Of a DNA stretch of 64,000 nucleotides, positions 21,501 to 61,100 are shown piece after piece. Positions within the stretch are counted from its first letter, which is position 1; each line of letters starts with the position of its first letter. The notes beneath the pieces were generated by a model. It saw nothing but the letters and a program-made list of their open reading frames with translations, was not told the DNA's origin and ran no database searches. The DNA is from Eledone cirrhosa (Eukaryota): assembly GCA_964016885.1 (NCBI GenBank), contig OZ024743.1, forward strand, positions 167,834,001 to 167,898,000, written 5' to 3'. A program made the position numbers and the translations under genes.

Positions 21501-23153
21501 TGGCTGATGATTTTAGGCATCATCTTCAGGTCGATGATGAAAATTTGATGAAAGCTATTGTTTTGCTCAATATTGAGAAATTGCTTGAAGTTCATTTCAA
21601 ATGTTTAACAGATTTCAATTTGCCAATTCCTGATGAAGAAATGCGGCAACGTGTCTTAGCATTGAACATGAGATTGCAGCTTAGACGGTTGCCACTCGAT
21701 CGGAGGGAACTATTCCAGTTTGTTTGATCCACTGGGACACCATATTGTGGATGAACGTATGCCAATGTTGACCCAATCTCAGAGAGAATTGGTCGATGGC
21801 GTTCTCCACGCGATTTCCACTAACGAGCAACTTTGTTCTTTTATAGATGCTCCAGGAGGCACCGGAAAGACATTCTGTTTCAACACTATGTTATCGGCAG
21901 TCAGAGCTCAGAGGAAGATTGCTCTCCCTGTGGAAACCAGTGGGATCGCTGCCACTTTGCTGAGTGGTGGAAGGACCTTCCACTCATGCTTCAAGGCTCC
22001 ATTGGCTCCGGATGGGTTGAGTGTCTGTAACATTACAGGACAAAGTGAACTTGCGGGCCTTATACGCAATACGTCTCTGATTATTTGGGACGAGGCTCCA
22101 ATGGCACACAGATATTTGCTGGAGGCATTGGACAGAACTTTGAGAGATATCTGCGGTAGTGACCTGCCATTCGGTGGTAAGACTATCGTTCTTGGTGGCG
22201 ATTTCAGACAGGTGCTACCAATTGTTAGGAATGCTCAAAGAGCGCAAATTGTCGATGCATGTCTGAAAAAGTCCCCGTTGTGGCGCCATTTCAGAGTTTT
22301 GCGATTACACGTTAATATGCGACTTCGTATGTTCGGGCAAAACGAAGAGGCTGAGACATACGGCCGATGGTTGATGCAGTTGGGAAACGATGAATTGCCA
22401 CACGTTGGTGATAATCAGATTGTAAGAATCCCAGACCATTTGGTCATGCCACTGAACCGCCAAGCATTGATTGACTGGGTGTTCCCTAATTTGAATGCTT
22501 TTTGGCAGAATATCTCCTGGATATCGGAACGCGTTATTCTAACTCATACGAATGCAACGGTCGATGAAATAAATTCACAAGTATCCGGAATGTTTCCTGG
22601 AGAATAATGGTTGACCGTCAGTGCGGATGCAATGGAGCCTAATCAGCAGAAAAATATGGATGTTCCGACTGAGTATCTGAATTCACTTTAAATACCCGGA
22701 TCCCCCCCCCCCCACACACATATTTTGAGGTTGAAAAAGGGTATGTCGATTATATTGCTTAGAAATATCAATCATAAAATGCGTCTTTGCAATGGTACCA
22801 GATTAATTGTTGAGAGATTGATTAACGGAAGAGTTTTAGAAGCTAAACTCCTAGGCAGAGAGGAATCGGTTCTCATTCCGAGGGTCATGCTGAGACCAAG
22901 TGAAGATCTGCTGCCATTAATTTGGCAAAGGAGACAGTTTCCCACCAATTTGGTCTTCTCCATGACTGTCAACAAGGCACAGGGACAGACTTTCAAGCGA
23001 GTCGGTGTCTACTTGAATGATCCAGCATTCAGCCATGGGCAACTGTATGTTGCTGCATCTCGAGTGTGCGATCCTGATGGTATAACATTTGCAATTGATA
23101 GCACTAACAGAGGAACAACCCTGAATATTGTCTATAATGAAGCTTTGAGCTGA
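18597..23153 (+). pseudogene. Helitron RepHel transposase (23-aa repeats, Zn finger, HUH Rep, PIF1 helicase), frameshifted
   Basis: CPHCGALLW..CC; Rep motifs FIITCNPEW, PHAHLLI and YLFKYLYKG; helicase motifs DAPGGTGKT, IWDEAPM, LGGDFRQVLP, LCNGTRL, TVNKAQGQT and FSHGQLYVAASR. The reading frame is split over about nine ORFs. Confidence 0.95.
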
Positions 23154-27500: not shown

Positions 27501-27860
27501 ACTGCATTCTTTATATTTGTCTCAGAGACAGCTGATCCATCATCCACTGGCCCTCTCTGTGGCTCTAAGCCAGCAGAGTCATAACGACCAGGCTGATCCT
27601 TGACAGTGTAATTAGGGGCTCTAACCCTAGTGCTGTTAGATCGACTCTCCATATTTCTTTTCAATGGCTGACAATACCTTACCGGCGCCACTCGAGTAAG
27701 GTAGTTATTTAACCCATAACTGGAGCCCTAACAGGTACTACCACCCCGGGCCAGGGCAGACCTGGGAGTCATGACAACTAAGGGGTAACTCCACATTCCC
27801 CACATCTCCTGAACTCCCGAACTGGAGCCTTGCCACTGGATGTAGTTTAATGTCATACCC

Positions 27861-40000: not shown

Positions 40001-42504
40001 AGTTAAAAATTTGACGAGGCGCTTAGTAAAGGCATCGCGACTGAAGTGCTTACGGCGAAATTGGACCTCGACAAATTCTTCAGTGCAAAGCACGAAGGCT
40101 GCCTTGACAGAGCTAGGGCGCTTCACTCAGCTGTTCGGGGCAGTGGTAGTTCGGATCGCAGGATAGTCTTTAGCGTCTACCTCGATGGACTGCCGCGGCT
40201 CTCGGCTAATGAGGCGGAGCGGCGCGAAAATCCGATAACACCCGCTGAAGTACGGGTAGCAATGACTGACTGCACGATGGTTAAATCACCTAGTTTGGAT
40301 GGTCTTCCCCACGAGCTTTACGTACACATGCCAGACTTGTTCAGTGACCTCATGGCGGACGTCTACTGCAACTGGCAGCAAAACGGGAGAATTCCCAGCT
40401 TTGTAAGCCGAGGAACAGTAGCACTGCTGAGAAAGGACCCGAATAAAGGGGACAACAGATAATTTCAGGCCTATAACACAGTTAAACGCAGAGTTGAAGA
40501 TTTTGGCCAAGGTGCTCGCAAAGAGGTTGGCGCTTGTCGTCGGTCGCCATTCCAGACAGATACATCCATGACAACCTCTACCTCATGCGATACATCGGGG
40601 AGAGGGTAGCTTACGAACCTGACACGGGAGGGGCCTTGATCAATTTAGATCAGTCGAGAGCTTTCGATAGTGTCGACCATCGTTATGATGCGGTGGTCCT
40701 AAGGGCGGCCGGCTTTGGGCCAGTCTTCAGAGGCTGGATTGCTGCCATGCACAGTGTCATCGGCTCGATCCGGCAAGGATGACACCTCTCGTGCCTGTTG
40801 TAAGTATTGACTCTCGAGCCATTACTGTACAAACTGGAGAAGTTGAGGGGGGTCCCGCGCGAACTGGGTGGCGGGAGAATCGTGCCAGCATATGCCGACG
40901 ACGTCACCGTAGTGGTGTTGAGAGCCAAACACATCGAGGCGATAGGCACTGCACTAAGAGAATGCGAGGCGGTGACAGGAGCAATGATCAACCAGGAAAA
41001 GTCGGTGGGCCTGCAGCTCGGCATCTGGAGAGGCAGGTCCATGCAGTCCCACAGCATCGTTGGGCGCTGGACGGACGGACCGGTTAAATTGCTAGGGTCT
41101 GGTTCGGTCCGGACCTCCAGACGGACAAAAACTGGGACGAGGTGACGAGCAGGGTGGCCTCTCTCATCCAGAAATGGGCCGAAAGGAAGCTCTCCCTGAA
41201 AGGTCGAGTGGAGGTGGCGAACGCGTACATCGCATCCCTCATCTACTACCGCCTGACCGTCGTGCCTTGTCCTAATCCTCGCCTGACTGCGTTGGGCGTT
41301 TGCTCTTTCGCTTTTCGTGGAAGGGACGTGATCCGATGGTCAGGCGGTCCATCTGCTGTCAACACCCGCTACGTGGAGGGCTGAGCATGCCGTGGCTGAT
41401 GATGCCCAGACACGCGCTCAGGCTACGACATATCCACCTCTTCCTCGACGGTGATCAGGTGATGTTGCCGTTTGCTAGACGCGTGTTTCCCAGCTTGTCT
41501 CCTTGACGGAGCTGCAGTCCTGTGTCAAGCGAAGACCGAAAGGGAACGCTTGGAGACTGGAATGTCTTCAGGCGCTCACAGCCCTCGACCAGTCGGGAAA
41601 TATCATCGGTGGAAACTCCACCTTGGCGTTCTATAGAGGATTAGTGGAGGGGAAGAGCGGCGACGTACTTTGGGAAACTCTAGGCGTCGACGAAAATCAA
41701 CTAATCAATCTCTTCGGAAGAACTTTCAGGCCGGGGCCTATGGACAACTTCCAGAAATCCCTGGCCTGGCAGTGCTACCGAGGAGCTTTGCCAGTTCGGG
41801 ATAAACTCTACAGGCATGGAGGTGCCGTCAGCCGGGCATGTCCGAGATGTGCGCAGGGCGACAAAACCGTCCTGCACGCACTCGTCCAGTGTCCTAGCAT
41901 TGCTGACTTTTGGATTTATGTCGAACACCTGCTGTCGCGTGTAGGACGGATCCGGCTATCAGCTGAGTCCATCGTGAGGATTTCCCGACCCTCTTCCTTT
42001 AGTCGAGAAGGTCAGGCAATTTTTATCTGTCTGGTGGCCATGGCGAAAGAGATAGTATGGTGGACGAAGTATGGCTGAAGACGAGCACTTACCTCTTCGG
42101 TGATGCCCTGATTAACTTTTTCAAATTTCATTTGAAAAGGAAAATCAGGGTAGAGAGGGAAGTGCTCTCTTCCCAGCATTTTGTTGAAAGATGGGTGAGA
42201 GAGGCAAGTATGAGTCGTGTGAATGGGCCTACTCTGTGTATGTGCCTGTAAATTGAAGGTGGAAAACTGGGAGAGGGCACTTGCCCTGGTTGTCAGGGTC
42301 ACTGTGGATTTTTTAATGGACTTTCTCACGATGGTCCCTCGGAAGTCTCCCTCCTATTGGGGAATTTTTCATTGTTTCTTTTTTGTTATATCCTCTGTTT
42401 TTGTTTTTTTACACGCAGAAATGCCCATTTGTACCTTCCTGTATCGTCCTGTATTGTCCTTAATGTCTTACTTTGTATAAACCCTTGTGGTTAATAAAGA
42501 AATC
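37027..42504 (+). mobile_element. Tx1/L1-clade LINE copy 1, full length, decayed with internal deletions
   Basis: ORF1 knuckle CVVCGEGTHLKNFC. ORF2 runs from 39094 (IGSINARGL, AISETR) through YADD to ~42250. It ends aataaagaaatc+(ATT)n and starts directly after the SINE ATT tail. Confidence 0.92.
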
Positions 42505-43145: not shown

Positions 43146-46080
43146 AAACAACAACAACAGCTGCAGCAACAGCAACAACAACAACAACAGCGGCGGCGAT
43201 CGTAGTACCAGCAGCAACAACAAAAGTAATAGCAGCTCTGACGACAACAACAACAATAAAGAAAAACCAATCTCGTTTCCAAGTATCGCAAAGAACCTGG
43301 AAACCATCTTTATAACAAATGAGGAATTACAGGAAGCATGGAAGATGGTGACGAAAACCGGACACCGAGCAATCTGCAAAGCAGCCGAATAATTTTTCGA
43401 AACCCAACAGCACTGTACGGTCACGTACCGTACAGTAAGCACAAAATCACGTTGGGTTGAAAGAGCCACAGAGGCTCAAATACAAAAAAAGCCTTAGGGT
43501 CAGTGTGGCAGCGGAAAACGCATATCACCGGAGGGAAGAAATATGCCAACGTATGCAAGGTCTCAATCCTTAGTAACCCTAAGGAGCGAGGAAATGGTGT
43601 TGGTTCCCTCCTACTGCGGGCAAAAAATTGTGAGGGTCAAACCGACCCAAGTCCCCCCCGGGATGGCCCTTCTTGGCTGGCCGCGTCTGTTCTCGTCGGA
43701 ATCGAGGACAAAACAACCGTACTGCAAGTACAGAAAAAGTACGAGAAGATTGGGTCGGCGCCTCCATTGACATGTTAATTCAAACCAACCAGGAGTGCAT
43801 CGAAGCTATCCCGGATGTGATAGACTTCGATAACGGCACTCAACTTCCCAGAAGCGTTGAGGGCAAACGCCCGAAATTCTTTCGCTGTGGGTCGAAGACT
43901 CACCTAAGAGCCTTCTGCAATGAGAAGACCCTGAGAAAGGAGAAAACACCCCTCCTACCGAAACCGGTTCCACTGCTACCAGCAACAGGACAGGCGGCAA
44001 GCAGGAAAGATAGGTCCGTGGCACCCATACCCACGCCACGGAAATCAAGAACAGCAGCAGCAGTGGAAGTATTAACAACAACAACAGTAATACCAACTGC
44101 AGCTGCAACAAAGACTTCACTGCAACCATCACCAACAACAACAAGTGAAACAGTGGAGCTGGTACCCCTCCACGACTTCACAGAATCGGACATGGAGTAT
44201 GAGGTGGGAGAGGGATGGCAAAAGGACGCACGAAGGCATAAACGCAGAAGCAGCGCATCGTCGCCTTCGAAAAGGGAGGGAAGAAATGAAAAAAGGGTGA
44301 AGGCTACTGTAAAGAGACTTACAGCAGCAACAACTGCAACACCATCACCACCCGCACCAGCACTATCATCACCACCGGTGGCAAGTCGAACCACCAACAA
44401 CAACAACACCTTCAACAACACCCCCACAAGCACCAACATCGCAAACACAACAAAACACACACACCCAGCAACAACGACAAGAAAATAGCAGAACCACACC
44501 CCACCCCCAGAAACAGAAATGCAATTACTGCAATAAATACACACAATAAATACACACAAGAAACTAATGACTTACATAATTGAACACACAGACATTTCAC
44601 AGCACGATTACATAATACCAGCACCAATGAAAACACCAACGAACATAAGACTGGTAAGAATATCACAGAAACAATACACAAACATTAAATGAAATTCCCC
44701 AACGCAGTTGGTGATTTCAGAGACCTAGGAGGGACACTCAACCGGAGAGTATACTCGGATATACTCACAGAAGAACCGACGACCAGCCGAAGGGACGATT
44801 CAACGGTCCCTTCATCAGACGATCAAGGTAAGTGATCCTTTCTCACTTGTCCCGTTCCTCACCCAGCATGGCCGTATTCAGGATCGGACGTGTAAACGTG
44901 CGTGGCTTGAGCACGGTTTGGAAGCAGGGTCACTTGCTTAACGACCTCAGGTCACTAATTATAGATCTGGTGGCCATCAGCGAGACGAGACTCTCCGAAA
45001 CGCAAGCTTTCGCACCGATCTTCGGCGGTTACGAGGTGTACGCATCTCCGAGCCGTCCGGGAGAGGGGGGCGGAGTGGCTGTGTTGTTTCGGAAAGGCTT
45101 GGTTCTCGCCATACGGACCATCTTCCTGGACCCAGTAGGTATGTCGGTGGTGCTCGCACTGAAGGCAACGCTTTCAGGCTAGTAGCCGTCTATGCCCCGA
45201 CAGGGACAGGACGGCCAGATTTCTTCAGACGTCTAGAGACCTTTCTTGGAACGTCTCGCTCTTTAGTGTTAGTGGGTGACTGGAACGGTATCTTGGATGC
45301 ACGCTGGGATTGTGTGGTGCTAGTGAATAGGGGAGGAGGGTGCAAGAGCCTCACCAACCTGATCAGACGTTTTAAACTGTCTGACAGCTATCGACTGGAT
45401 CACCCGAATGCTCCAATGTGGACATGGACAAAACGCATCGGGTCATACAGATCGTATCTCGATAGGGTATTCTGCAGAGAACTAGATAAGGCTAGTATAA
45501 GTTGTCCACAATTTAAAATAGTCGACTACACAGACCACAAATTTGTGATCTGTGAGATCGACATAGACAGACTTCATAGACAAAGACCCGGTTACTGGAA
45601 GCTGAACGCGTCTTTCCCGGCGCGCAAAGCCTACAGAAACCGGATTAGCGTATCAGTCAAGCGGGCGTTGACGGGAGCGGACGTCAACAATAGGTGGTGG
45701 TTCGCCTGAAAAGGGCTATTAAAGTAGAGTCGATTAGGTTTAGCAAAGGACTAGTGATAGAGGAAAATAGAGTAGAGGGTGAGCTAGTCAGAAAGCTAGA
45801 AGAGGCGTTTATGACAGGCATCGCAACCGAGGTGCTTGCGGCGAGAATGGCACTTGACCAATTCTACAACGCAAAACATGAAGGCTGCGTTGTAAGAGCT
45901 AGAGCTCGTGCTCTGAAACACGAGGGGAAAAAGACGTCCAATGGGCCCGGGTGACAGAGGAGCGACGTGGCAACAAAGCCACAATTCGGTCTTTATCTGA
46001 CCAAAACGGGCGCGTGTTGCTCGAAGCCGAGCAGATGTGTGAAGCTTTTCAGCAGCACTTTGCTGAACTGTTCGGGAGCT
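42529..46080 (+). mobile_element. Tx1/L1-clade LINE copy 2, 3'-deleted (ORF1 plus APE domain only)
   Basis: The 5' UTR and ORF1 closely resemble copy 3. ORF2 starts at 44868 and ends abruptly after FQQHFAELFG. Preceded by (ATT)n. Confidence 0.9.
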
Positions 46081-46185
46081 CCGTCTTCCGCCTCCGATGC
46101 GTGTTCCGCCGTTAAGGCGTGCCCAGTTGGCCGCCTCCGACCCGTGTGGCTGCAGTGGAATCCAGCCGATGTCGACGCCCGGATA

Positions 46186-46758
46186 TTAGCATTCTTTCTG
46201 TAGCCTTTTTAAGGTCTCCTCTTTTCAACCAGTTCCATGTCTGTGGATCTCTGAATTCAGTTTTCTCAAAGAAGGTACTATGAAGGGATTTTTCCTGAAG
46301 GCTGCTCTTTCTCCTTGTTGTTATTTCCTCCTTGGACATCCCCTGGTCTATTGTCCTCTCCTTCAGTACAATTCTGAGCATTGGCTCCTTACTATTAGTC
46401 ACGTATTTGTGTAGGTTGTTTTTCCCATCTGAACACAGTCCTCTATGCTGATAAGACCTCTTCCACCTTCAGATCTCTTTAAGTAGAGTCTATCGACATC
46501 ACTCCTCTTGTGGAACATGTTGTAGATAGTCAATAGCTTCCTAGTCTTCCTATCCATTTCTTTTTGTTCAGCAACATTCCATTTCAGAATTCCCGCACTG
46601 TACCTAATAATAAACACAGCTCGGGAATTCACTGCACTTATGACATTCCTACTATTTAGAAGTGATTTTAATACGCTCCTAACTCTCCTAATGTACTCAG
46701 ATCTTATCAACTCCTTCATTTTTTTGTTCTTGATGTCATCAGCCTTCAGAACACCCAA
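46186..46758 (-). pseudogene. Internal fragment of the Dong/R4-type LINE, 5'-truncated at a (TAA)n tract
   Basis: Closely matches ~53525-54100 (LGVL.AD.IKNKKMKEL...RSDVDRLYL.RSEGGRGLISIEDC). Confidence 0.9.
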
Positions 46759-47000
46759 ATTATTATTATTATTATTATTATTATTGAATGCCATGGTTGA
46801 CGGAGGCTCGGCTCTGTAAGGTATAGTAATTTTTAACCGTTAAAACAATTGTAAATTGTTTAAAACTTGAACCAAATTGTTGATAAAGACACCCTCCTCC
46901 TCGTGAGAGGGGTCTTTCTGTCCGTTATTTGGCCCTTCGGGGTTAAATAACCAGTTATTGGGGTTTTGTACCCAATATTCATTTTAAACAAAAAAACAAC

Positions 47001-49013
47001 ATGGCTACGAAAAAAAAATGTCATACGTCACTCCCACTCATTCCGTCTTCTTCTTCCTCAATCATCACCACAGCAGAGAGAAGATTGTCTCTCTCCCTCC
47101 CTTCTTTAAATGTGTCTCTCTCCCTCCCTTCTCTTTCGCAAGTGACGAAAGAAAAGAAAAGTCTCGTGCAAAGCGTGCAAGGTTTCTCCACGACGACGAC
47201 GACAGCGACGAAACAGGTGTGCGGGAAATACGAAAACCCAGTTCATTCGTCTGACGTCAGGAATAATAGCAGTAGCAGCCGTAATAACAACAGCAACAGT
47301 GACAATGAAAACAACAGTAGCAGCCGCAACAGCATCACCAGCAGCATAAACAACAACAGCATTAGCAGCAGCAACACCAACAACAACCACAGCAACAGCG
47401 GCGGAGGCAGTAGTCGTAGTACTTGCAGCAACAACAAAAGTACCAGCAGCTCTGACGACAACAACAACAGCAGAGAAAAACCAATCTCATTTGCAGGTAT
47501 TGCGAAAAACTTGGAAACAATCCTCATAACAAATGAGGAATTAGAGGAAGCGAAAAAGATGGTGACAAAGAACGGACACCGAGCAATCTGCAAGGCAGCG
47601 GAAAAATTTTTCGAAACCCAAGAGCACTGTACGGTCACGTACCGTACAGTAAGTACAAAATCCCGTAGGGTGGAAAGAGCAACAGAGGCCCAAATACAAA
47701 AAGCCTTGGGGTCTGTGTGGCAGCGGAAAACGCACATCACCCGAGGCAAAAAATATGCCACCGTAGACGTACTTTTTGCCACACCCCAGGAGGCAAAGGC
47801 CCAATCAGTAGTGACCCTAAGGAGCGAGGAAATGGTGTTGGTGCCCTCCTACTGCGGGCAAAAAATTGTGAGGGTCAAACTGACCCACGTCCCCCCCGGA
47901 ATGACCCCTTCTTGGCTGGCCGCGTCTGTCCTCGTCGGAATCGAGGACAAAACAACTGTACTGCAAGTACAGAAAAAAGTAAGAGAAGATTGGGTCGGCT
48001 CCTCCATTGAGATGCTAATCCAAACCAACCAGGAGTGCATCGAAGCTATCCCGGATGTGATAGACTTCGATAACGGCACTCAACTGCCCATAAGTGTTGA
48101 GGGCAAACGCCCGAAATGCTTTCGCTGTGGATCGAAGATTCACTTCAGGGCCTTCTGCAACGAGAAGACCCTGAGAAAGGAGAAAACCCCCCTCCTTCCG
48201 AATCCGGCTCCACGGCTACCAGCAACAGGACAAGCGGCAACCAGGAACGATAGGCCCGTGGCACCCATACCCACTCCACGGAAATCAAAAACAGCAGCAG
48301 CAGTGGAAATATTAACAACAACAACAGCAATACCAAATGCAGCTGCAACAGAGACTCCAGTGCAAACATCACCAACAACAACAAGTGAAAGAGTGGAGCT
48401 GGTACCCCTCCCCGACCTCACAGAATCAGACATGGAGTGTGAGGTGGGAGAGGGATGGCAAAAGGTCGTAAGAAGGCACAAACGCAGAAGCAGCGCATCG
48501 TCGCCTTTGAAAAGGGAGGAAAGAAATGAGAAAAGGGTAAAGTCTACTGCAAAGAGACCCACAGCAGCAACAACACCAACACCATCACCACCCACACTAG
48601 CACCACCATCACCACCGGCGACAACCCCACCGCCAACAACACCTTCAACACCACCACCACAAGCACCAACATCGCAAACACAACAACAAAACACACACAC
48701 CCAGCAACAACGACAAGAAAATAGCAGAACCACACCTCAACCCCAGAAAAACAAATGCACGGCAATAAATACACACAACAAGAAACTAATGACTTACATA
48801 ATTGAACACACAGACATTTCACAACAGGACTACATAATACCAGCACCAATCAAAACGCCAACTAACATAAGACTGCTAAAAATAGCACAGAAACAATACA
48901 CAAACATTAAAACGAAATTCCCCAACGCAGTTGGTGATTTCAGGGACCTAGGAGGAACCATCAATCGAAGAGTATATTCAGACATTCTCTTAGAAGAGCC
49001 GACGATCAAGTGA
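47001..49013 (+). CDS. Tx1 ORF1 (gag-like nucleic-acid-binding protein, 670 aa)
   Basis: Open 670-aa frame with an N/S-rich low-complexity N-terminus, a CX2CX4HX4C knuckle (CFRCGSKIHFRAFC) and a P/T-rich tail; homologous to ORF1 of the other copies. Confidence 0.88.
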   Translation: MATKKKCHTSLPLIPSSSSSIITTAERRLSLSLPSLNVSLSLPSLSQVTKEKKSLVQSVQGFSTTTTTATKQVCGKYENPVHSSDVRNNSSSSRNNNSNSDNENNSSSRNSITSSINNNSISSSNTNNNHSNSGGGSSRSTCSNNKSTSSSDDNNNSREKPISFAGIAKNLETILITNEELEEAKKMVTKNGHRAICKAAEKFFETQEHCTVTYRTVSTKSRRVERATEAQIQKALGSVWQRKTHITRGKKYATVDVLFATPQEAKAQSVVTLRSEEMVLVPSYCGQKIVRVKLTHVPPGMTPSWLAASVLVGIEDKTTVLQVQKKVREDWVGSSIEMLIQTNQECIEAIPDVIDFDNGTQLPISVEGKRPKCFRCGSKIHFRAFCNEKTLRKEKTPLLPNPAPRLPATGQAATRNDRPVAPIPTPRKSKTAAAVEILTTTTAIPNAAATETPVQTSPTTTSERVELVPLPDLTESDMECEVGEGWQKVVRRHKRRSSASSPLKREERNEKRVKSTAKRPTAATTPTPSPPTLAPPSPPATTPPPTTPSTPPPQAPTSQTQQQNTHTQQQRQENSRTTPQPQKNKCTAINTHNKKLMTYIIEHTDISQQDYIIPAPIKTPTNIRLLKIAQKQYTNIKTKFPNAVGDFRDLGGTINRRVYSDILLEEPTIK

Positions 49014-49052
49014 AAAGGGATGTAAAAACCATCCCTCCTCTACCAAAAGTAC

Positions 49053-49106
49053 GGTAAGTGGTCTTTCCCATCTTTTCCACTCTATTTTAAACATGACCTC
49101 ACTCAG
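49053..49106 (+). promoter_or_regulatory. Conserved inter-ORF splice-donor-like motif G|GTAAGT with pyrimidine tract and CAG; also at 39054, 44827, 60301 and 32499(-)
   Basis: A perfect 5' splice-site consensus lies 39-44 nt upstream of the ORF2 ATG in all five Tx1 copies. Function is inferred. Confidence 0.6.
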
Positions 49107-52100
49107 AATAGGCAGCATAAATGCGCGTGGCTTGGGGTCGTCATGGAAGCAGGGTCACCTGCTCAACGACCTCAGGTCACTAAACATAGATGTAGTGGCC
49201 ATCAGCGAGACCAGAATCTCCGAAGCACGGGCCTTCGCACCGATCTTCGGCGGCTACGATGTGTACGCATCTCCCAGCCGTCCTGGATCGGGTGGAGGAG
49301 TTGCTGTGCTTTTTCGGAGAGGTTTGGATCTCGCCATACGGGCCATCTTCCTGGACCCAGAGGGTAAGCTGGTGGTGCTGGACGTGACCAGCGGAGACGG
49401 GCAAGCTTTCAGTCTAGTGGCCGTCTATGCCCCGACAGGAGCAGGGCGGCCTGATTTCTTCCGGCGTCTGGAGACCTTTCTTGGAACGTCCCGCTCTTTA
49501 GTGTTAGTGGGCGACTGGAACGGGATCTTAGATGCACGCTGGGACTGTGTGGGATTAGCGGATAGGGGTGGAGGGTGCAAGAGTCTCACCAACCTGCTCA
49601 GGCGTTTTGAACTGTCTGACAGGTACCGATTGGATTTCCCGAATGTGCCAATGTGGACTTGGACAAACCGCATAGGGTCATCCAGATCATATCTAGATAG
49701 AGTATTTTGTAGGGAAATAGATAGGTCTAGCATAGGCTGTCCACAATTCAAGATAGTCAGCTACACGGACCACAAATTCGTGATCTGTGTGCTTGACTTA
49801 GATAGGCTTCATAGACGAGGACCCGGCTACTGGAAGCTAAACGCGTCCTTACCAGCGCGCAAGGCCTACAGAGACCGGATTAGCGAACTAGTTAAGCGGG
49901 CGTTGACGGGGGCCATCGTCAACAACAAGTGGTGGTTTGCTCTGAAAAGAGCGATTAGAATAGAATCGATTAGGTTTAGTAAGGCTTTAGCAATAGAGAA
50001 AAATAGAGCAGAGGGAGAACTAGTTAGAAAATTAGACGAGGCGCTTAGCAAAGGCATTGCGACCGACGTGCTTGCGGCGAAATTGGCCCTTGACCAATTC
50101 TTCAATGCAAAGCACGAAGGCTGCGTTGTCAGAGCAAGGGTGCGTGCTCTCAGACACGAGGGGACGAAAGCCGTTCAATGGGCCCGAGTGGCGGAGACGC
50201 GTGTGTGGCAACAAAGCCACGATCCGGTCTTTGGTGGACCACGACGGGCGCATGCTACTCGATCCCGGGCAAATGTGTGAAGCTTTTCAGCGACACTTCG
50301 CTCAGCTGTTCGGGGGCAGCGGTAGGCCGGGTAGAGGGATGGAGTTTAGTGTCTACCTCGACGGACTGCCGCGGCTTTCGGCCACTGAGGCGAAGTGTTG
50401 CGAAAAGCCGATAACAGCCGCTGAAGTAAGGGAGGCAATGACTGGCTGCACAAGGGGTAAATCGCCTGGTTTGGATGGTCTGCCCTATGAACTTTACGTA
50501 CAGATGCCAGACTTGTTCGGAGGCCTCTTGGCGGACGTCTACTGCAACTGGCAACAGAACGGGAGAATTCCCAGTTCTGTGAGCCGAGGAGCGGTGGCAC
50601 TGCTGAGAAAGGATCCGAACAAGGGGGATAACATGGACAATTTCCGGCTCATAACTCTGCTAAACACAGAGTTCAAGATTTTGGCCAAGGTGCTAGCAAA
50701 GAGGTTGGCGCCTGTCGTTGGTGATCTGGTGGGAGAGGCGCAGACATGCGCCATTCCCGACAGATCCATCCACGACAACCTCCACCTCATGCGATACATC
50801 ATAGAGAGGGTAGCTAAGGAACCTGGCACGGGTGGGTCCTTGATCAATTTAGATCAGTCGAAAGCTTTCGATAGGGTCGACCATCGTTACCTAGCGGCAG
50901 TCCTGAGGGCGGCTGGCTTTGGGCCCGTCTTCAGAGGCTGGATCGCTGCCATGCACAGCGACATCTGCTCTGTGGTGAGAGTGAACGGTCACCTGTCGGA
51001 ACCGTTCAACATCATGCGCTCGGTCCGCCAAGGATGTCCCCTCTCGTCCCTCTTGTACGTATTGACTCTCGAGCCATTACTGCACAAACTGGAGACGTTG
51101 AGGGGAGTCCCGCGCGAACTAGGATGCGGAAGATCCGTGTCAGCATATGCGGACGATGTCACCGTAGTGGTGTCGAACGCCAAACACATCGAGGCGATCG
51201 GCACTACACTAAGAGAATACGAAGCGGTGACAGGAGCAATGATCAACCAGGAAAAGTCAGTGGGCCTGCAGCTCGGCACCTGGAGAGGCAGGTCCATGCC
51301 GTCCAACAGCGTCGTCGGACGCTGGACGGACGGACCGGTTAAATTGCTAGGGGTCTGGTTCGGTCCGGACCTCCAGACGGACAAAAACTGGGACGAGGTG
51401 ACGAGCAGGGTGGCTTCTCTCACCCAGAAATGGGCGGAGAGGAAGCTATCCCTGAAAGGTCGAGCGGAGGTGGCTAACGCGTACATCGCGTCTGTCATCT
51501 GCTACCGCCTGACCGTCGTACCTTGTCCTAAGCCTCTCCTGACTGCGCTGGAGCGTTTGCTCTTTCGCTTTTTGTGGAAGGGACGTGCTCCGATGGTCAG
51601 GCGGTCCATCTGTTGTCAACACCCGCTACGTGGAGGGCCGGGCATGCCGTGGCTGATGATGCGCAGGCACGCGCTCAGGCTACGACATCTCCACCTCTTC
51701 CTCGACGGTGATCAGGTGTGGTCGCCGTTTGGTAGGCGCGTATTTCCCCAGCTCGTTTCCTTGACGGAGCTGCAGTCCTTGGTCAAGCGAAGACCGAGAG
51801 GGAGCGCCTGGAGACTGGAATGTCTTCAGGCGCTCACAGCCCTCGAGCAATCGGGCAATGTGATCGGTGGAAACTCCACCTCGGCGTTCTATAGAGGATT
51901 AGTGGAGGGTAAGAGCGACGACGTACTTGGGGAAACTCTAGGCGTCGACGAAAATCAACTAGCCAATCTCTTCGGAAGAACTTTCGGGCCGGGGCCTATG
52001 GACAACTTCCAGAAATCTCTGGCCCGGCAGTGCTACCGAGGAGCCTTGCCAGTTCGGGATAAACTCTACAGGCATGGAGGTGCCGTCAGCCGGGCATGTC

Positions 52101-52513
52101 CGAGATGCGCGCAGGGCGACGAAACCGTCCTGCACGCACTCGTCCAGTGTCCGAAAATTGCTGACTTGTGGGTTTATGTCGAACACCTGCTGTCGCGTTT
52201 AGGACGGATCCGGCTATCATCTGAGTCCATCGTGAGGATTGCCCCGCCCTCCTCCTTTAGCCGGGAAGGGCAGGCAGTTTTTATCTGTCTGGTGGCCATG
52301 GCGAAAGAGATAGTATGGTGGACACGTTTGAAAGGGCTGAAGACGAGTACTTACCTCTTCGGTGATGCTCTGATTGACTTTTTCAAATTTCATTTGAAAA
52401 GGAAAATCAGAGTAGAGAAGGAAGTGCTCTCTTCCCAGCATTTTGTTGAAAGATGGGTGAGAGAAGCAAGAATGGCCCGAGTGAATGGGCCTACTCTGAG
52501 TATATATCTGTAA
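49093..52513 (+). CDS. Tx1 ORF2 (APE endonuclease, reverse transcriptase, CCHC) with one frameshift near 50200
   Basis: The 395-aa and 818-aa ORFs join across a 1-nt insertion relative to copy 4 (gagacgcgtgtgtggc vs gaggcgcgacgtggc). Motifs: VGDWNG, YLDRV, TDHK, LDQSKAFDRV, RQGCPLS, YADD, CPRC..HALVQC. Confidence 0.9.
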
Positions 52514-52804
52514 ATTAAAGGTGGAAAACTGGGAGAGGGCACTTGCCTTGGTGGTCAGGGTCATTGTGGCTTTTTACTGGGCTTTCTCCACAAATGTCCC
52601 TCCGAAGTCTCCCCCCTATTGGGGAATTTTTCATTGTTATTTTCATTGTTATTTTTGTTACATCCTCTGTTTTTGTTTTTTACACGCAGAAATGCCCATT
52701 TGTACCGTCCTGCATTGTCCTGCACTGTCCTTAATGTCTACTTTATGTAAACCCTTGTGGTTAATAAAGAAATCATTATTATTATTATTATTGTTATTGT
52801 TATT

Positions 52805-55800
52805 CCTTGAATCTCAGTCATTGATGTTGGTTAACTGGAAAGTCCGTTGGATTGAATATCAAGCCACTACCTGCAGCCTCAGATATTCAGGACGTATCGG
52901 AGGGTTCTTGCTGTTCCAAGCAAGCATGCCTTTTGAAGCGTTCCAAAAAGCGTGAAGGGGCCGATTTTCTTTAACCATCCCTGGAAACTTTTGGAGATAG
53001 TCCCCAGTGCGCCTATGACAATCGGGATCACTTTGACTTCATGGCAGTTCCAAATCCTTTTCACCTCCCACTTTAGGTCCTGGTATCGGTTAATTTTCTC
53101 CCTCTCCTTCTCTTGCACTCTCGTGTCGAACGGGCAGGCCACATCCACAATCAGGCACGATCTTTTTTCTTTGTCCACAACCACCAGGTCAGGTCTATTG
53201 TGTTCCAGGTTTTTGTCCGTCTGTATCCTAAAATCCCACAGCACCTTCACCTGATTGTTCTCCATCACCGCCTCTGGCCTATGCTCATACCATTTCTCAG
53301 AATGTGGTAGATTGTTTACTTTGCACAGGTGCCAGTGGATCACCCTGCCCATCACATCGTGTCTCCAGCCCTTATAGTGGGTCTGGGCTAGGTGTTTACA
53401 CTCGGACACAATGTGAGCCACAGTCTCCTCTCTCTCTCCACAGATCCTGCACAGTGGGCTGGCCTCCTCCTTGTAGATATGGTGCTTCAACCACTTCGTT
53501 TTGAGGGCCTGCTCCTGCGCAGCCATTAGCATTTCTTCTGTAGCCTTTTTGAGGTCTCCTCTTCTCAACCAGTTCCATGTCTGTGGATCTCTAAATTCAG
53601 TTTTCTCAAAGAAGGTACTATGAAGGGGTTTTCCCTTAAGGCTGCTCTTCCTCCTTGATGTTATTTCCTCCCTGGACATCCCCTGGCCTACTGTCCCCTC
53701 CTTCAGTACAGCTCTGAGCATTGGCTCCTTACTATAGGTCACGTATTTGTATAGGTTGTTTTTCTCCATCTGAACACAGTCCTCTATGCTGATAAGACCT
53801 CTTCCACCCTCAGATCTCCTTAGGTAGAGTCTATCGACATCACTCCTCTTGTGGAACATGTTGTAGATAGTCAATAGCTTCCTAGTCTTCCTATCCATTT
53901 CTTTCTGTTCAACAACATTCCATCTCAGAATTCCCGCACTGTACCTAATAATAGACACAGCTCGGGAATTTACTGCGCTTATGGCATTTCTGCTGTTCAG
54001 ATGTGACTTCAATACGCTCCTTACTCTCCGAATGTATTCAGTTCTTAACAATTCCTTCATTTTTTTGTTCTTTATGCCATCAGCCTCCAGAACGCCCAAA
54101 TACTTGTATCCTTCCTCAGAGTCAATTTCCTTTATCATCTCACCTGTTGGTATCTGGATCCCGTTACTTCTGCTCAACCTACCCCTCTTCATCACAATGA
54201 CTCCACATTTACCAATACCAAACTGCATACATATATCACTGCTGAAAATACGGACAGTTTCAACAAGCACATCCAACTCCTTCTCACTTTTCCCGAAGAG
54301 CTTAAGATCGTCCATGAAGAGGAGGTGATTGATGGTAAGCTCTCCCCTTCCCAACTTGTATCCTGCTCTCACTTTTCGCAGCATAATGGTCAAGGGCATC
54401 AGGGCAAGGACAAACAACAGAGGGGACAGGCTATCTCCCTGGAAGATACCTCTCTTGATCTTCACGCTTCCCAAGGATACTCCAGTTGATGTCAACTCTG
54501 TCTCCCAGGACCCCATACTCCTGCCTAGCAACTGTCTGATGTTATCCGCCACCCTGAAGATCTCCAGGCTTTTGGTGATCCAGGAATGAGGCACCATGTC
54601 AAATGCCTTTCTGTAGTCTATCCATCCCATGGCAAGATCAGTGTGTCTCCTCCTGCAATTCCCCATTACCATCTTATCAATAAGCAACTGGTCCTTTGTA
54701 CCACGTGACTTCTTTCGGCATCCTTTCTGTTCGTCCGGTAACAAGTTGTTTGTGTGGAGGTGATGGTAGATTTCCTCAGACACAATGCTCGTCAACAGTT
54801 TCCACATTACGGGCAGACATGTGATAGGTCTATAGTTGGTAGCATCATTACCCTTGATTCGGTCTTTCATTATCAGAACTGTGGTACCTTTTGTCAACCA
54901 CTCTGGCACCTCACCCGACACCAAGCAGTCATTGAACATGGCCGTCAGCTTCGGGTGGAGGGATGTTAGATGTTTAATCCAATACCCCTGCACACCATCT
55001 GGGCCTGGCGATTTCCAGTTGGTTAGTTTTTTGGCTTGTCCCTTAAGAGTTTCAACTGTGATACTCAAATCAGTCTGTTGCTGTGCCTGCTCACCGATCT
55101 CCCTCTGTACTGTCTCAATCCACCCTGCCTGGGCATTGTGTCTAACATCCTGCTCCCATATTCCTCTCCAGAATGTTTTAGTTTGCTCCGCCACAGGGAT
55201 CAAGTCGTTGCCTCTTTCTTTGCCCTCAAGCTGTCCAAACAGCATCTTCTGGTTGTTGTCGAACATGCGGTTCTGTTTATACTGACTGACCCTGTTCTCG
55301 TATCGCCTGATTTTTGCACTCTTTGCTACAATGCGTTGCTTCAATTCCTCTATGATAATATTTAGCTTTTTACTCCTAGTTTTGTATTTTATTTCCAGTC
55401 TATTTTTAGTGCCTATGTTTTTTAGTGTCCCATTCAGTAGTGACTCAAGCTTTCCTATGTCATTTCTCATTTCCCCGATTTGCCCACTCAGTCGCTTCTT
55501 CCACCACGGCTCTGCTCTTTCTTGTCTGTTGTTTCCTCTCGCTTTTATACCAAGTAGTTTCCTCACCGTATTTGCTGTTGCTCTGAGGATATTGTTGCAC
55601 TGGTGAAGGGTCCTCGCCTCAAGGTATGGGATGTCTTTGTTTACCTTAGCTGTTGTTTCTTTTAACTTTTTCCTGTCTACAAATCTTAGGTTCATAGGTC
55701 TCCCACTATCATTGTTCAATTCATCTACCACTAAATTTAGGATGTCAACCGAATCTTGTCCTAGCCCGTCAGCATTCATCTCCTCAGTGGCCGTATCTCT

Positions 55801-56570
55801 GTTCCAGGTATTATTTATCTCAGTACTCAGATCATTGTCTGCTTCGGGTGGTTCCTCCGTTCTCAGGACCTCCTCACCTTCATTTCCCACCGGCTCGCTT
55901 GTCTGGCATACTACACCCGCCATCTCCAAGCCATTCTCTCTGCTCAGTTCCTCCAGTTCCAGCTCGCTTATCCACCCATTAGTTCTTATTACCCGAGCCT
56001 GCCCGGCCAATTTTTGTTCATCTAATTTAAATAAACCAATCTCGTTCCAGATGTTATGCATCCGTCTCCTGTAGCCCCTCTCCTTGGGGTTACTTTTCAG
56101 GTAGCATTGCATAACAGTTCTATTCAATTCTTTCGTCCAGTTGGTTCTGGCCCCTTTCCTTCTTCTCCTTCCTCCAACATCAGCAGTATTTGGTTGACAG
56201 TCAGGTTCCTGCTGCTGAGCCAGGGGGCACCTGTTGGGTGAGAGTCTGTCACATGACGTTCTAGTCTCCATTTCACCGTTATTCGAACTGTTTATGTTCG
56301 ATATTTAAACACTCTTATCGAGGATTGGCGAATGTATGTTTACATAGCCATCTGTGGATCCGCCATCCCACTTGGCCCTTGTGTGGCATTATCACCACGC
56401 TGTATACGAACACACATAAACAAACAAACACACAGGCAGAAAGGGCCCCAGAAATGAATAAGCATAAGTTTCATTGTAATGTAGTGTTCGAATGTCTGAC
56501 TTAGTTTTAGTTTTTTAAGTTTTACTTTTTCCCCCCTCTTCTCTGTCCGTCCGCCTGCTTCTCTCTTCAT
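52805..56570 (-). mobile_element. Dong/R4-type non-LTR retrotransposon, apparently full length, with a (TAA)n 3' junction
   Basis: Single long ORF with a short 3' UTR ending gactgagattcaagg then (AAT)n. The 5' boundary is approximate. Confidence 0.88.
52879..56271 (-). CDS. Intact 1130-aa RT plus restriction-like endonuclease polyprotein
   Basis: NYRPITCL, WIDYRKAFDMVPH, GIFQGDSLSP, HLLFMDDLKLF, CRICGEREETVAHIVSEC and RPDLVVVD..IVDVACP..EKINRY; no internal stops. Confidence 0.95.
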   Translation of the reverse strand: METRTSCDRLSPNRCPLAQQQEPDCQPNTADVGGRRRRKGARTNWTKELNRTVMQCYLKSNPKERGYRRRMHNIWNEIGLFKLDEQKLAGQARVIRTNGWISELELEELSRENGLEMAGVVCQTSEPVGNEGEEVLRTEEPPEADNDLSTEINNTWNRDTATEEMNADGLGQDSVDILNLVVDELNNDSGRPMNLRFVDRKKLKETTAKVNKDIPYLEARTLHQCNNILRATANTVRKLLGIKARGNNRQERAEPWWKKRLSGQIGEMRNDIGKLESLLNGTLKNIGTKNRLEIKYKTRSKKLNIIIEELKQRIVAKSAKIRRYENRVSQYKQNRMFDNNQKMLFGQLEGKERGNDLIPVAEQTKTFWRGIWEQDVRHNAQAGWIETVQREIGEQAQQQTDLSITVETLKGQAKKLTNWKSPGPDGVQGYWIKHLTSLHPKLTAMFNDCLVSGEVPEWLTKGTTVLIMKDRIKGNDATNYRPITCLPVMWKLLTSIVSEEIYHHLHTNNLLPDEQKGCRKKSRGTKDQLLIDKMVMGNCRRRHTDLAMGWIDYRKAFDMVPHSWITKSLEIFRVADNIRQLLGRSMGSWETELTSTGVSLGSVKIKRGIFQGDSLSPLLFVLALMPLTIMLRKVRAGYKLGRGELTINHLLFMDDLKLFGKSEKELDVLVETVRIFSSDICMQFGIGKCGVIVMKRGRLSRSNGIQIPTGEMIKEIDSEEGYKYLGVLEADGIKNKKMKELLRTEYIRRVRSVLKSHLNSRNAISAVNSRAVSIIRYSAGILRWNVVEQKEMDRKTRKLLTIYNMFHKRSDVDRLYLRRSEGGRGLISIEDCVQMEKNNLYKYVTYSKEPMLRAVLKEGTVGQGMSREEITSRRKSSLKGKPLHSTFFEKTEFRDPQTWNWLRRGDLKKATEEMLMAAQEQALKTKWLKHHIYKEEASPLCRICGEREETVAHIVSECKHLAQTHYKGWRHDVMGRVIHWHLCKVNNLPHSEKWYEHRPEAVMENNQVKVLWDFRIQTDKNLEHNRPDLVVVDKEKRSCLIVDVACPFDTRVQEKEREKINRYQDLKWEVKRIWNCHEVKVIPIVIGALGTISKSFQGWLKKIGPFTLFGTLQKACLLGTARTLRYVLNI

Positions 56571-56574
56571 TCTT

Positions 56575-57935
56575 ATTTTCTTTACGTTTTTGGGGTTTCT
56601 TTTTTTTGTTTTTGTTTTTCTCTGTTTGTTTTTCTCGTTTTTTGCTGTTGTTGCTGTGCTGCTTTGGTTTTGTTGTTTGTTTTTTCTTTTTTCTTTTGGG
56701 TCTATCTATATATTTTGATGCCTTCCTCTTTGTTAGTAGTAGGAATTCTATAATGTGGAAGTAGCAGCCAGCAGGGAAGTGGGTGACTGGCGGCGTTAGC
56801 GATACTGAGACAGTGGTGGTGGTGATGTCGATACCGAGGCAGTGGTGGCGGTGATGTGACCGTATTACTGTAGTGATGGTGCTGTAGCGGAGTCAAGGGG
56901 TGGTGGCGGCGGTGCTGGGATAGTGGTGGTAATGATGGCCGTAGTGAGCGGTGGCGGTGAAGGTGAAAATGTGTCGTTATCTGGCTGTTGTGTTTAGTGT
57001 ACACAGATGATGGGGTGGGTGGTGTATCTAGTTTCTGGTGTTGGTGAGTTTAGCTGTCCTATATAGTGTAGCCAGAGGAGAGGAGGGGAGGGGTTCTTCT
57101 TCCATTTATAGCCATTTTTTTATTTTTGGATATACAGTGTACAATACAAAGTTGAATATTTGAATATTTGAGCCTTATAACAATATATTTTCTTTACGTT
57201 TTGAGCCTTATAACAATATATTTTCTTTACGTTTTGAGCCTTATAACAATATATTTTCTTTACGTTTTTGGGGTTTCTTTTTTTTGTTTTTGTTTTTCTC
57301 TGTTTGTTTTTCTCGTTTTTTGCTGTTGTTGCTGTGCTGCTTTGGTTTTGTTGTTTGTTTTTTCTTTTTTCTTTTGGGTCTATCTATATATTTTGATGCC
57401 TTCCTCTTTGTTAGTAGTAAGAATTCTATAATGTGGGATTAGCAGCCAGCAGGGAAGTGGGAGACTGGCGGCGTTAGCGATACTGAGACAGTGGTGGTGG
57501 TGATGTCGATACCGAGGCAGTGGTGGTGGTGATGTGACCGTATTACTGTAGTGATGGTGCTGTAGCGGAGTCAAGGGGTGGTGGCGGCGGTGATGGGATA
57601 GTGGTGGTAAGGATGGCCGTAGTGAGCGGTGGCGGTGAAGGTGAAAATGTGTCGTTATCTGGCTGTTGTGTTTAGTGTACACATATGATGGGGTGGGTGG
57701 TGTATCTAGTTTCTGGTGTTGGTGAGTTTAGCTGTCCTATATAGTGTAGCCAGAGGAGAGGAGGGGAGGGGTTCTTCTTCCATTTATAGCCATTTTTTTT
57801 TTTTTTGGATATACAGTGTACAATACAAAGTTGAATATTTGAATATTTGAGCCTTATAACAATATATTTTGGGTCCGAATTTTATGGGGCTCAAGCCGGG
57901 TGCTTTACGTAGCATTTGTGCTAAGAGTTGTTATT
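56575..57935 (-). repeat. Tandem duplication (period 678 bp) of a probable Tx1-like 5' end and ORF1 start, with a 33-bp triplication at the junction
   Basis: 56575-57190 matches 57253-57870 (twin 100-aa ORFs 678 bp apart). ttgagccttataacaatatattttctttacgtt occurs three times at 57168-57266. Confidence 0.8.
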
Positions 57936-58133: not shown

Positions 58134-61100
58134 GTTGGTGAAGCCACGCTTCTTATCGCCTCCAGTCTTTTTCAACGTTTTACCTCTTTTTCAATCGTTC
58201 TAAACCTTTTATTCAAGTTTTAAATTTGATAAAAGTTTAGAAGAAGTGACCCACCTAATACAGGGGTTCACTAGTAAATAATACGACACCCCTTTACGGG
58301 GTGTCGCATTCGTATTTGTATAAAAATATTTTTTTGAAAAATTTTAACATCGATAACACAAAGAGAGAGAGCGCTATCAGACAACACAGAGAGAGGGAGA
58401 CTTTATCAGCATGTCAACAAGACAGCGTTCCAGCGGAGGTAAATATAAACGAAACATTACAAACGAAAAAAAGATTGTTACAGATTTAAAATTACCAAAT
58501 ATTTCTAACACAAACAACACCAACAATAACACCAACAACATCACCAAAAATAACAGCGGTAAAGTCGAGAACGACAATAACAAAAATAACAGCGGTAAGG
58601 TCGAGAACGACAATAACAAAAATAACAGCGGTAAGGTCGAGAACGACAATAACACTGACAATAACAACAGCCACAATAACAGTAACAGCAGCAACAGTAT
58701 CAACGAAAATAATACCAACAACTGTACCAGCGAAAAGAACAACAATGACACCGATACCTGTAATAGGGACCTCAGCACCACCAGTAAGACCAGTAGCGGC
58801 AGCAATAGTGGTGCTGCTGAAAAAGGGAACACTTCTTTTGCAGGTGTCGCCCTAAATATCGAGACAGTGTTAGTCACAGAGGAGAAGATGGCAGTCGCAA
58901 GGGCCATGGTGACAAGAAGCGCAAATAGAGTTTCCCTGAAACCTCCACCCGATTTTTTTAAGGACCAGCAGCTACGGACGGTGACTTACCGCACCGTAAG
59001 CAAAATCTCACATCGAGTGGAGAGAGCCACGGAGGCTCAAATCCAAAAGGCCTTGGGGTGCGTCCGGCACGCAAAACCCACATCACCCGAGAAAGTACGC
59101 CACAGTAGACGTACTTTTCGCCACCCCCCAGGAAGCAAAGTCTCACTCTTTGGAAACCCTAAAGAGTGAGGAGTTAGTCTTGGTGCCCTCCTACTGCAGG
59201 CAGAAAATTGTGAGGCTCAAAGTGACCCAGGTCCCACCCGACGTGCCCATACCTTGGCTGGTCGCGTCTGTCCTTGCTGGAATTGAGAACAGGGCGACCA
59301 TGCTGCAAGTAGAAAAAATAGGGAGAGAGAACTGGTCAGGTATAGGCATGCAAATGCTTATACAAACTGACCAGGAATGTATCGAGGCTATCCCCGGTAT
59401 CATAGACTTTGAGGAAGGACTCCAACTCCCTATAAGTGTAGAAGGAAGACGGCCAAAATGTTATCTCTGTGGGTCGAAAGGTCACCTCAGGGCCTTTTTC
59501 CCGCAGAAGACACCGAAGAGGGCCCCTCTCCTTCCAATACCTGGTCCGCTGCTACCAAGAGCAGGACAGGCAACAAACCAAGAAGCCCCTTCCACGGTGA
59601 GTAGGAGGGCAACGTCCGTAGCACCCGTACCAAGGCCACGGATAACTAAAGCAGCATCATCAGTAGCGGCAACACCAATAGCTACATTTGAAATAGCTAC
59701 ACCAGCAACAAAATTGCCGAAGAGGGTTCCACTACCACCATCAACAGCCGTGGAGCACATACCCCTCCCAGACGCCACAGAATCCGACATGGAGTTTGAG
59801 GCGGGAGTGACGTGGCAAACAGTTTGCCACAAAAAACAAAAAACAAAAAAACCTTTAGATTCACCCTCCAAAAGCGAAGGCATACAAAGAGGGGTAAAAG
59901 GCAGCAAAGAAACTTGCAGCATAAACACCAACAACGCAAACACAACAAGACACACACACCAAACAGCAACAAGAAGAAAACGGCAACAAAATCACCCCTC
60001 CCCCCAAAAAGTACACAGCCATAAACATAGCAAAAAAAGAACTCATAAAATATATAAAGCAGCACACAGACATCACGGAAAAAAAACTACTACACCCCAC
60101 CAACACCAAGAACTCTCCCGACAAACATAAGCATCATCGAAATCTCAATAGAACAATACAAACCTTTAAAACGAAAATTCTCCAACGCAGTTGGAGACTT
60201 CAGAGGGACGGTTACCAAGAGGATATACTCTGACATCCTCTTGGAAACACCCATGACCAGCGAAAGGGACGGTTCTACTGTCCCTTCACCACACGAACAA
60301 GGTAAGTGACCCTTTCTCATTTGCCCCGTTTCTCATCCAACATGGCTGTATTCAGAATAGGCAGCATAAATGCACGTGGCCTGGGGTCATCTTGGAAGCA
60401 GGGTCACCTGCTCAATGACCTCAAGTCACTAAACATAGATGTGGTGGCCATCAGTGAAACCAGAATCTCCGAGGCGCGGGCCTTCGCACCGATCTTCGGC
60501 GGCTACGATGTATACGCATCTTCCAGCGGTCCAGGATAGGGGGGAGGGGTTGCCGTCCTTTTTCGGAGAGGCTTGGATCTCGCGATACGGGCCATCTTCC
60601 TGCACCCAGAAGGTAAGTCGGTGGTGCTGAACGTGACCGGCAGCGAAGGCAATGCTTTCAGGCTAGTAGCCGTCTACGCCCCAACAGGAGCAGGACGGCC
60701 AGATTTCTTCAGACATCTAGAGACCTTTCTTGGAACATCCCGCTCTTTAGTGTTAGTGGGCGACTGGAACGGTATCTTGGATGCACGCTGGGATCGTGTG
60801 GGGCTAGTGGATAGGGGAAGAGGGTGCAAGAGCCTCACCAACCTGCTCAGACGTTTTGAACTGTCTGACAGGTATCGACTGGATCACCCGAATGTGCCAA
60901 TGTGGACATGGACAAACCGCATCGGGTCATCCAGATCGTATCTAGATAGGGCATTCTGCAGGGAACTGGATAAGGCTAGTATAAGTTGTCCACAATTTAA
61001 AATAGTCGACTACACAGACCACAAATTTGTGATCTGTGAGATCGACATAGACAGACTTCATAGACAAGGGCCTGGTTACTGGAAGCTGAACGCGTCTTTC

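Follow-up and report, generated by a model that had tools for sequence, protein, structure and literature searches.

A conserved U1-complementary 5' splice-site motif at the end of ORF1 in Tx1-like LINEs of Eledone cirrhosa

LINEs rely on the upkeep of a full-length, A-rich RNA that carries two genes and on the balance between ORF1 and ORF2, both of which are partly understood. In the window analysed here (64,000 nt of the Eledone cirrhosa genome, contig OZ024743.1, positions 167,834,001 to 167,898,000), five LINE copies, numbered 0 to 4, carry a sequence resembling a 5' splice site between these ORFs, which raises the question of whether this motif is under selection and whether it acts in splicing, in translation or in keeping the RNA intact.

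Tx1-like elements and the motif at their ORF border

ORF2 of these elements comprises an N-terminal AP endonuclease (PF03372), a reverse transcriptase (PF00078) and a C-terminal zf-RVT domain (PF13966), and its best matches among solved structures are L1 ORF2 endonucleases (E about 1e-5). It is preceded by a separate ORF1 with a CCHC zinc knuckle, which completes an architecture of the L1/Tx1 clade. As in the Tx1 clade, insertion occurs into microsatellites, with (ATT)n or (ATCT)n flanks, often in tandem with matches spaced about 6 kb apart. The elements are classed here as Tx1-like LINEs on this architecture and targeting, rather than on a reverse transcriptase tree or a named Tx1 reference among the protein matches. 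Among named proteins, the nearest comes from Argonauta hians (68%), which points to an octopod host. A pattern for the ORF2 start has 9,692 matches genome-wide. A protein search with the ORF2 region of one subfamily (F) returned no match, and a first metagenome scan for relatives found none. The features of copy 3, on which the description centers, and the motif in the other copies are as follows:

46786 to 52774, + strand: copy 3, a full-length Tx1-like LINE with (ATT)n flanks
47001 to 49013, + strand: ORF1 of copy 3 (CCHC knuckle), ended early by a 40-nt deletion near 49001-49005
49051 to 49059, + strand: 5' splice-site/U1-complementary motif of copy 3 (exon end 49053, GT 49054-49055), overlapping the ORF1 stop of the subfamily
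49054 to 49092, + strand: pyrimidine-rich ORF1-ORF2 spacer of copy 3, with a strong start context at its end
49093 to 52513, + strand: ORF2 of copy 3 (AP endonuclease, reverse transcriptase, zf-RVT), with one frameshift
32493 to 32501, - strand: motif of copy 0 (phase 2; ORF2 ATG begins at 32454)
39052 to 39060, + strand: motif of copy 1 (phase 2; ORF2 ATG at 39094)
44825 to 44833, + strand: motif of copy 2 (phase 1; ORF2 ATG at 44868)
60299 to 60307, + strand: motif of copy 4 (phase 1; ORF2 ATG at 60342)

Other features of the window are a single 1,141-codon reverse transcriptase frame which has no Pfam AP-endonuclease match and represents a different LINE type (52879-56304, - strand), a tandem duplication of about 620 nt with 98% identity upstream of it (56574-57870), a fragment of this single-frame LINE type that interrupts copy 2 (46185-46760), an endonuclease-reverse transcriptase LINE of another family with a DUF6451 match (24803-27727, - strand) and broken Helitron-like helicase/PIF1 frames (19174-22607, + strand).

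The sequence GGTAAGTG occurs at all five sites given in a preliminary description of this DNA, namely 32499 (- strand), 39054, 44827, 49053 and 60301, with its GT located 44, 39, 40, 39 and 40 nt upstream of the ORF2 ATG in copies 0 to 4, respectively. Equally accurate were the GT..AG spans of 53 nt (copies 1 and 3) and 54 nt (copies 2 and 4) and the ORF1 frames at the motif (agg-TAA-gt in copies 0 and 1, caa-ggt-aag-TGA in copies 2 and 4). What had been taken for a 2-nt indel in copy 3 is really a 40-nt deletion between short repeats, found in that copy only among 13 close copies aligned (one other has a different deletion); most of the subfamily keeps the 40 nt, and its ORF1 ends on the motif in phase 2. 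The motif is the top-scoring donor within the 6-kb copy 3. As a bare 7-mer, it occurs 12 times in the window (7.6 expected), a count reached in 6 of 100 shuffles and hence unremarkable, so that its significance derives from position and from conservation across subfamilies.

Conservation, pairing with U1 and a possible role in RNA integrity

Copies were read from the first 30 genome-wide matches and from 40 of the next 70, the latter favoring rarer pattern variants; a further sample consisted of 30 of the 76 matches of a divergent-subfamily pattern and 12 more stretches. By a lenient count that allows wobble, a GT site with at least 8 of 11 U1-paired positions is present in 67 of the 70 copies, the misses being two 5'-truncated copies and one deletion, and in 27 of the 30 from rarer subfamilies. 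The wider conservation that had been proposed as a check thus extends over several subfamilies. The motif had been called invariant, which does not apply to the family as a whole: GTAAGT, GTGAGT, GTAGGT and GTAATT all occur, and the GT lies 25-52 nt before the ORF2 start.

Among 19 single-copy representatives, motif columns -2 to +6 account for 6 parsimony changes (1, 0, 0, 0, 1, 2, 1 and 1), where about 30 are expected from the 3.73 changes per column at 56 four-fold ORF2 sites multiplied by 8 columns; the flanking columns show 2-7 changes each. These representatives share 32-95% pairwise identity at four-fold ORF2 sites, and all 19 have the GT as well as an invariant G at -1. The ORF1 frame is not conserved at the motif: its phase is 2 in subfamilies A, A', B, D, E, G, H and J, 1 in C and I, and 0 in F (those of I and J read by eye from the conserved Met rather than from intact ORFs). 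The earlier view that selection acts on the nucleotide motif and not on the protein is upheld by these three frames together with the deficit of changes.

The proposed match to U1 also holds, as U1 genes of the same genome pair with 8-10 of the 11 positions from -3 to +8 in every representative. A>G wobbles occur at +3, +4 and +7 with compensating gains at -3 or +8, and in D and H a C is gained at -3 where 3' pairs are lost. The motif ranks first by donor score in 13 of the 19 representatives, second in 5 and third in 1. Scores of at least 8 are reached by 15 of the 19 representatives in E. cirrhosa compared with 5 of 494 background windows, and among distant L1/Tx1 relatives (the 39 of 80 metagenome loci having an ORF2 start and upstream DNA) by 1 of 39 junction windows compared with 2 of 1,004 background windows; the motif is therefore not clade-wide. 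The donor/U1 motif is real, selected and, as far as the comparison extends, lineage-specific. In one of the distant relatives (metagenome locus L277), a donor-like site precedes the ORF2 start by 38 nt; as an isolated case, it may be due to chance.

The reading preferred here, which we place only a little short of probable, is that the motif is an orphan U1 site suppressing premature polyadenylation in the A-rich tail of ORF1. ORF1 would end in a conserved 5' splice site that is complementary to U1 and likely has no regular partner acceptor. U1 snRNP would bind it on the nascent RNA and block cleavage at cryptic AAUAAA or AUUAAA hexamers situated 140-350 nt upstream in the ORF1 tail; the two-gene RNA would thereby stay full length, and ORF2 would be made from unspliced RNA through termination-reinitiation. 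Candidate signals in copy 3 are:

48764 to 48911, + strand: cryptic poly(A) hexamers in the ORF1 tail (at 48764 and 48906), preceding the donor by 290 and 148 nt

The A content of the ORF1 tail is 38-45% (roughly 41%). In 15 of the 19 representatives, against 10.7 expected, the donor is preceded at 100-400 nt by a poly(A) hexamer, and the hexamers total 22 against 15.5 expected from shuffles, a weak enrichment among representatives that are related. Their positions are not conserved, and C1, C1b, J2 and B3 have none within 400 nt; given this and the weak enrichment, the hexamers could be by-products of Asn-Lys/Ile-Lys codons.

A precedent is found in HIV-1 and foamy virus, whose major splice donor suppresses polyadenylation (PMC3694450). 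As in these viruses, a U1-complementary donor is located in a retroelement RNA which must stay full length, and the distances to the signal are comparable, being 195 nt in HIV-1, where the donor lies downstream of the signal (PMC3694450), and 140-350 nt for the candidate signals here. The viruses have a real LTR poly(A) site and a donor that is also regularly spliced (PMC3694450), whereas the present case concerns a non-LTR element, a site in the middle of the RNA and cryptic, unconserved signals, and a protective role would be deduced by analogy. A splicing-dead G/C donor mutant of foamy virus retained most activity (PMC3694450). The invariance of the -1 G and the GT in the Eledone elements differs from this tolerance, and splicing competence itself may matter.

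The conservation and the complementarity to U1 would equally serve a binding site with another role, such as nuclear retention or stabilization, help in elongation or self-limiting expression, and the weak enrichment of poly(A) signals leaves room for such roles. Positive evidence for them is lacking, however, and, given that 5' splice-site motifs can block RNA export, a block of this kind would hinder translation; this explanation is considered improbable.

Possible splicing from the donor

The preliminary description proposed a mini-intron of 53 or 54 nt that takes in the ORF1 stop and the ORF2 ATG and whose excision would yield an ORF1-ORF2 fusion:

49054 to 49106, + strand: proposed 53-nt mini-intron of copy 3, of which no retrocopy lacking it was found

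Subfamilies of phase 2 (A, A', B, D, E and J) do have an in-frame AG, and J shows a branch-like TTAAC and an in-frame CAG just before the ATG. In C, F, G, H and I, however, splicing to the first AG would not keep the frame. The acceptor reads AAG in B, D and E, an Arg codon at the beginning of the endonuclease supplies the in-frame AG, and the lengths amount to 34-54 nt. The fusion RNA would encode the reverse transcriptase, and retrocopies are consequently expected, yet intron-less copies number 0 beside about 6,460 counted intact donors. The search retrieved exon ends followed by anything but an intact donor, a design that catches mini-intron products and misses some other junction starts. 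It produced 9 and 8 matches in A/A' (against 4,452 intact donors) and 2 and 1 in B (against 1,482), none of them an intron-less copy; all were small indels, microhomology deletions, one fragment and one inversion. The mini-intron product was also absent from the 29 matches in J (against 526 intact donors) and from the 19 and 46 matches in C (30 of the 46 were read and the rest seen as matched letters), while D, E and F gave 0 matches and I gave 3, all point changes. Several loci that resembled splice products were discounted: L102/L131, L212, L222 and, less clearly, L220 have lost sequence between short repeats, L134 and L202 are small pieces surrounded by unrelated DNA, and L136 contains an inversion. 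Contigs from sequencing runs of unrecorded type, four runs compared with copy 3 and three with the junction of locus L029, continue through the donor, and no joint or loose end at it is among those listed; as contigs lose rare forms, this observation is given no weight. The disagreeing frames, the lengths of 34-54 nt and the absence of intron-less retrocopies among the matches searched lead to the rejection of the fusion as a regular route, and it is regarded as very improbable.

Signs of donor use come instead from three chimeric junctions which end exactly at the donor of one element and continue after a CAG of the partner; they suggest that the motif can act as a donor, as earlier supposed. 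The first is present in copy 3:

49010 to 49011, + strand: junction 1, C-type ORF1 end at its donor joined to A-type sequence; candidate fossil splice junction
49011 to 49053, + strand: 43-nt A-type segment from the junction to the copy 3 donor; a like segment follows CAG in A-type copies

The subfamily of copy 3 (A') resembles C2 at 92% in the 120 nt that precede 49010 and A1 at 96% after its own donor, with one base extra in the 43-nt segment relative to A1, the known candidate parent. By hand count, the A' form makes up about 44 of the first 100 A-type donors among the matches listed, which corresponds to roughly 2,000 copies. Junction 2, observed 19 times, connects a J-type exon end to B sequence after a CAG situated 23 nt before the B donor, and ORF1 of the product runs through the B donor and stops 38 nt beyond. 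Junction 3, at 3 loci, connects a J-type exon end to an element of the event-2 type, after a CAG that precedes the same point by about 76 nt. Copies taken without selection revealed events 1 and 2, and event 3 came from a donor-directed search.

All three junctions join two different subfamilies or copies rather than parts of one element; the partners share a target repeat and can thus sit in one array. CAG occupies 1.6% of positions in ORF1 tails and 31% of their AGs; at two control sites with a non-donor CAG, the search gave 1 point mutant and 0 matches, and no chimera. A 2-nt AG microhomology at each junction offers template switching as a rival origin. Judged by their sequence, the junctions would fit rare true splicing across tandem arrays, and rare splicing from the donor into a neighboring copy likely founded the subfamily of copy 3. 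In the preferred mechanism this would be a side effect: in read-through RNA from a tandem array, the donor would occasionally splice to a CAG before the donor of the next copy, and the product, which would keep an intact ORF2, could retrotranspose and found a subfamily. That the lineage depends on the U1-bound donor and also swaps its ORF1 in this way, array splicing joining promoter and ORF1 to the next ORF2 and founding successful subfamilies, is a serious possibility, though we lean against it. Two loci (L058 and L088) are in-register J/B chimeras in the ORF1 tail and reflect ordinary recombination between subfamilies. In a search of uncalibrated sensitivity for donor cleavage that leaves 5'-truncated copies, 0 A-type copies had the target repeat at most 30 nt from the spacer motif.

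Human L1 SpIREs are likewise retrotransposed copies of spliced LINE RNAs, marked by exact donor-acceptor junctions (PMC5860796). In SpIREs, splicing takes place within the 5'UTR of one element or from it into ORF1 and yields dead ends (PMC5860796); the junctions described here unite two elements at the end of ORF1 and keep the promoter and both ORFs. No retrocopy lacking an intron internal to a single element was found, and the products differ from dead ends in that the A' junction heads roughly 2,000 copies, the other two events being represented by the 19 and 3 junctions mentioned above.

Alternatively, the donor could be joined to a remote acceptor, located within ORF2 or near the 3' end, giving an ORF1-only mRNA and a high ORF1:ORF2 ratio, and such RNA would rarely be retrotransposed without ORF2. 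The donor coincides with the end of ORF1, its -1 G and GT are invariant, and the chimeras suggest that it is competent for splicing. YAG sites preceded by pyrimidines are common to 14 of 15 representatives at about +450, +570, +2,320 and +2,830, and a synonymous-invariant block at +1,720-1,760 has a branch-like hexamer and tandem AGs. Nevertheless, no retrocopy with such a junction was found beside about 5,900 A/B donors (with two patterns that miss some junction starts), the YAGs of ORF2 fall within background invariance (invariant third positions number 16 of 89 for Leu and 9 of 47 for Arg), A types have TAA in place of the acceptor-like TAG that ends ORF2 elsewhere, and the donor phase varies, so that ORF1 would have no fixed ending. 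A strong 3'-UTR acceptor at 52689 looked ideal for copy 3 and was rejected because it is confined to A types. No conserved acceptor stands out among the 15 of 19 representatives with long 3' sequence. Cis-preference would make ORF1-only RNA a poor substrate for retrotransposition, and a lack of genomic copies is thus compatible with its existence; on balance, a distant acceptor appears unlikely, though clearly less so than the fusion.

Three observations touch on the same region. A block of about 35 nt in the reverse transcriptase region (50765-50814; also 40563-40610 and 62015-62061) is nearly invariant at synonymous sites, with an observed/expected synonymous change of 0.29-0.35 across 15 representatives, and possibly represents an RNA structure or a branch point with tandem AGs. 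A second strong donor-like site occurs about 310 nt into ORF2 (about 49364 and 60612) in A, C, H and I types and is absent from B, D, E and F. In B, D, E, F and G (L108, L109, L110 and L113), the ORF2 stop TAG follows a pyrimidine run and precedes GT, and is thus both acceptor- and donor-like.

Translation of ORF2, related systems and significance

The motif might also be a translation signal that only resembles a donor, acting as stop context or ribosome tether for ORF2 reinitiation, with the chimeras produced by template switching at the AG microhomology. It contains the ORF1 stop in 8 of the 11 subfamily groups, its three main variants read TAA, TGA and TAG, and subfamily F resembles a stop-start overlap. 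However, subfamilies of phases 1 and 0 retain the motif although it does not form their stop, and the conserved positions coincide exactly with the U1 footprint and show compensating changes; all three junction partners have CAG, and the control sites yielded no chimeras. Tethers of the calicivirus type lie 40-90 nt upstream of the stop and not on it (PMC5972666). A purely translational role is judged about as improbable as the other U1 functions, and if anything slightly more so.

Subfamily F has 622 matches. ATA replaces the ORF2 ATG in 100 of 100 copies among the matches listed and overlaps the ORF1 TAG, and copies with both ORFs intact exist. No in-frame ATG lies upstream (L117, L050, L068 and L075), and the next Met is past the first endonuclease motif. 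From its sequence, this subfamily appears to start ORF2 at ATA, and ORF2 is probably made by reinitiation. L1 ORF2 reportedly tolerates loss of its AUG. Termination-reinitiation in SART1 and L1 also operates on a bicistronic RNA, and the ATA/TAG of subfamily F resembles a stop-start overlap of this kind (PMC3894237, PMC5972666); caliciviral reinitiation accepts non-AUG codons (PMC5972666). In contrast to the present elements, which have a spacer of 25-52 nt, no splice-donor motif takes part in the SART1/L1 process as set out in the portions of these papers used here (PMC3894237, PMC5972666).

As regards the distribution of such donors, among the accessible papers covered by title and abstract opening, none dealt with an inter-ORF donor in Tx1. 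Kibi and Koshi have been placed in Tx1. They are APE-type LINEs that insert into simple repeats, as do the elements of E. cirrhosa, their targets being TC or TTC compared with (ATT)n and (ATCT)n here, and the consulted part of their description mentions no inter-ORF donor (PMC3812793). Active L1-Tx1 families are given in a repeat study of Octopus vulgaris, the portion of which used here does not mention splicing (PMC13282606).

A strongly selected donor exactly at the ORF border provides a single mutable handle on RNA upkeep and ORF balance in a non-mammalian LINE, and nature offers a test of non-AUG reinitiation in the 622-copy subfamily F, which lacks an ORF2 AUG. Should the three junctions have arisen by splicing, splicing across tandem arrays would constitute a route to the replacement of ORF1 and the birth of LINE subfamilies, and the founding of subfamilies would, if true, be the opposite of the dead-end spliced copies of L1. 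Subfamilies that were probably born by splicing are the most surprising by-product of the conserved donor.
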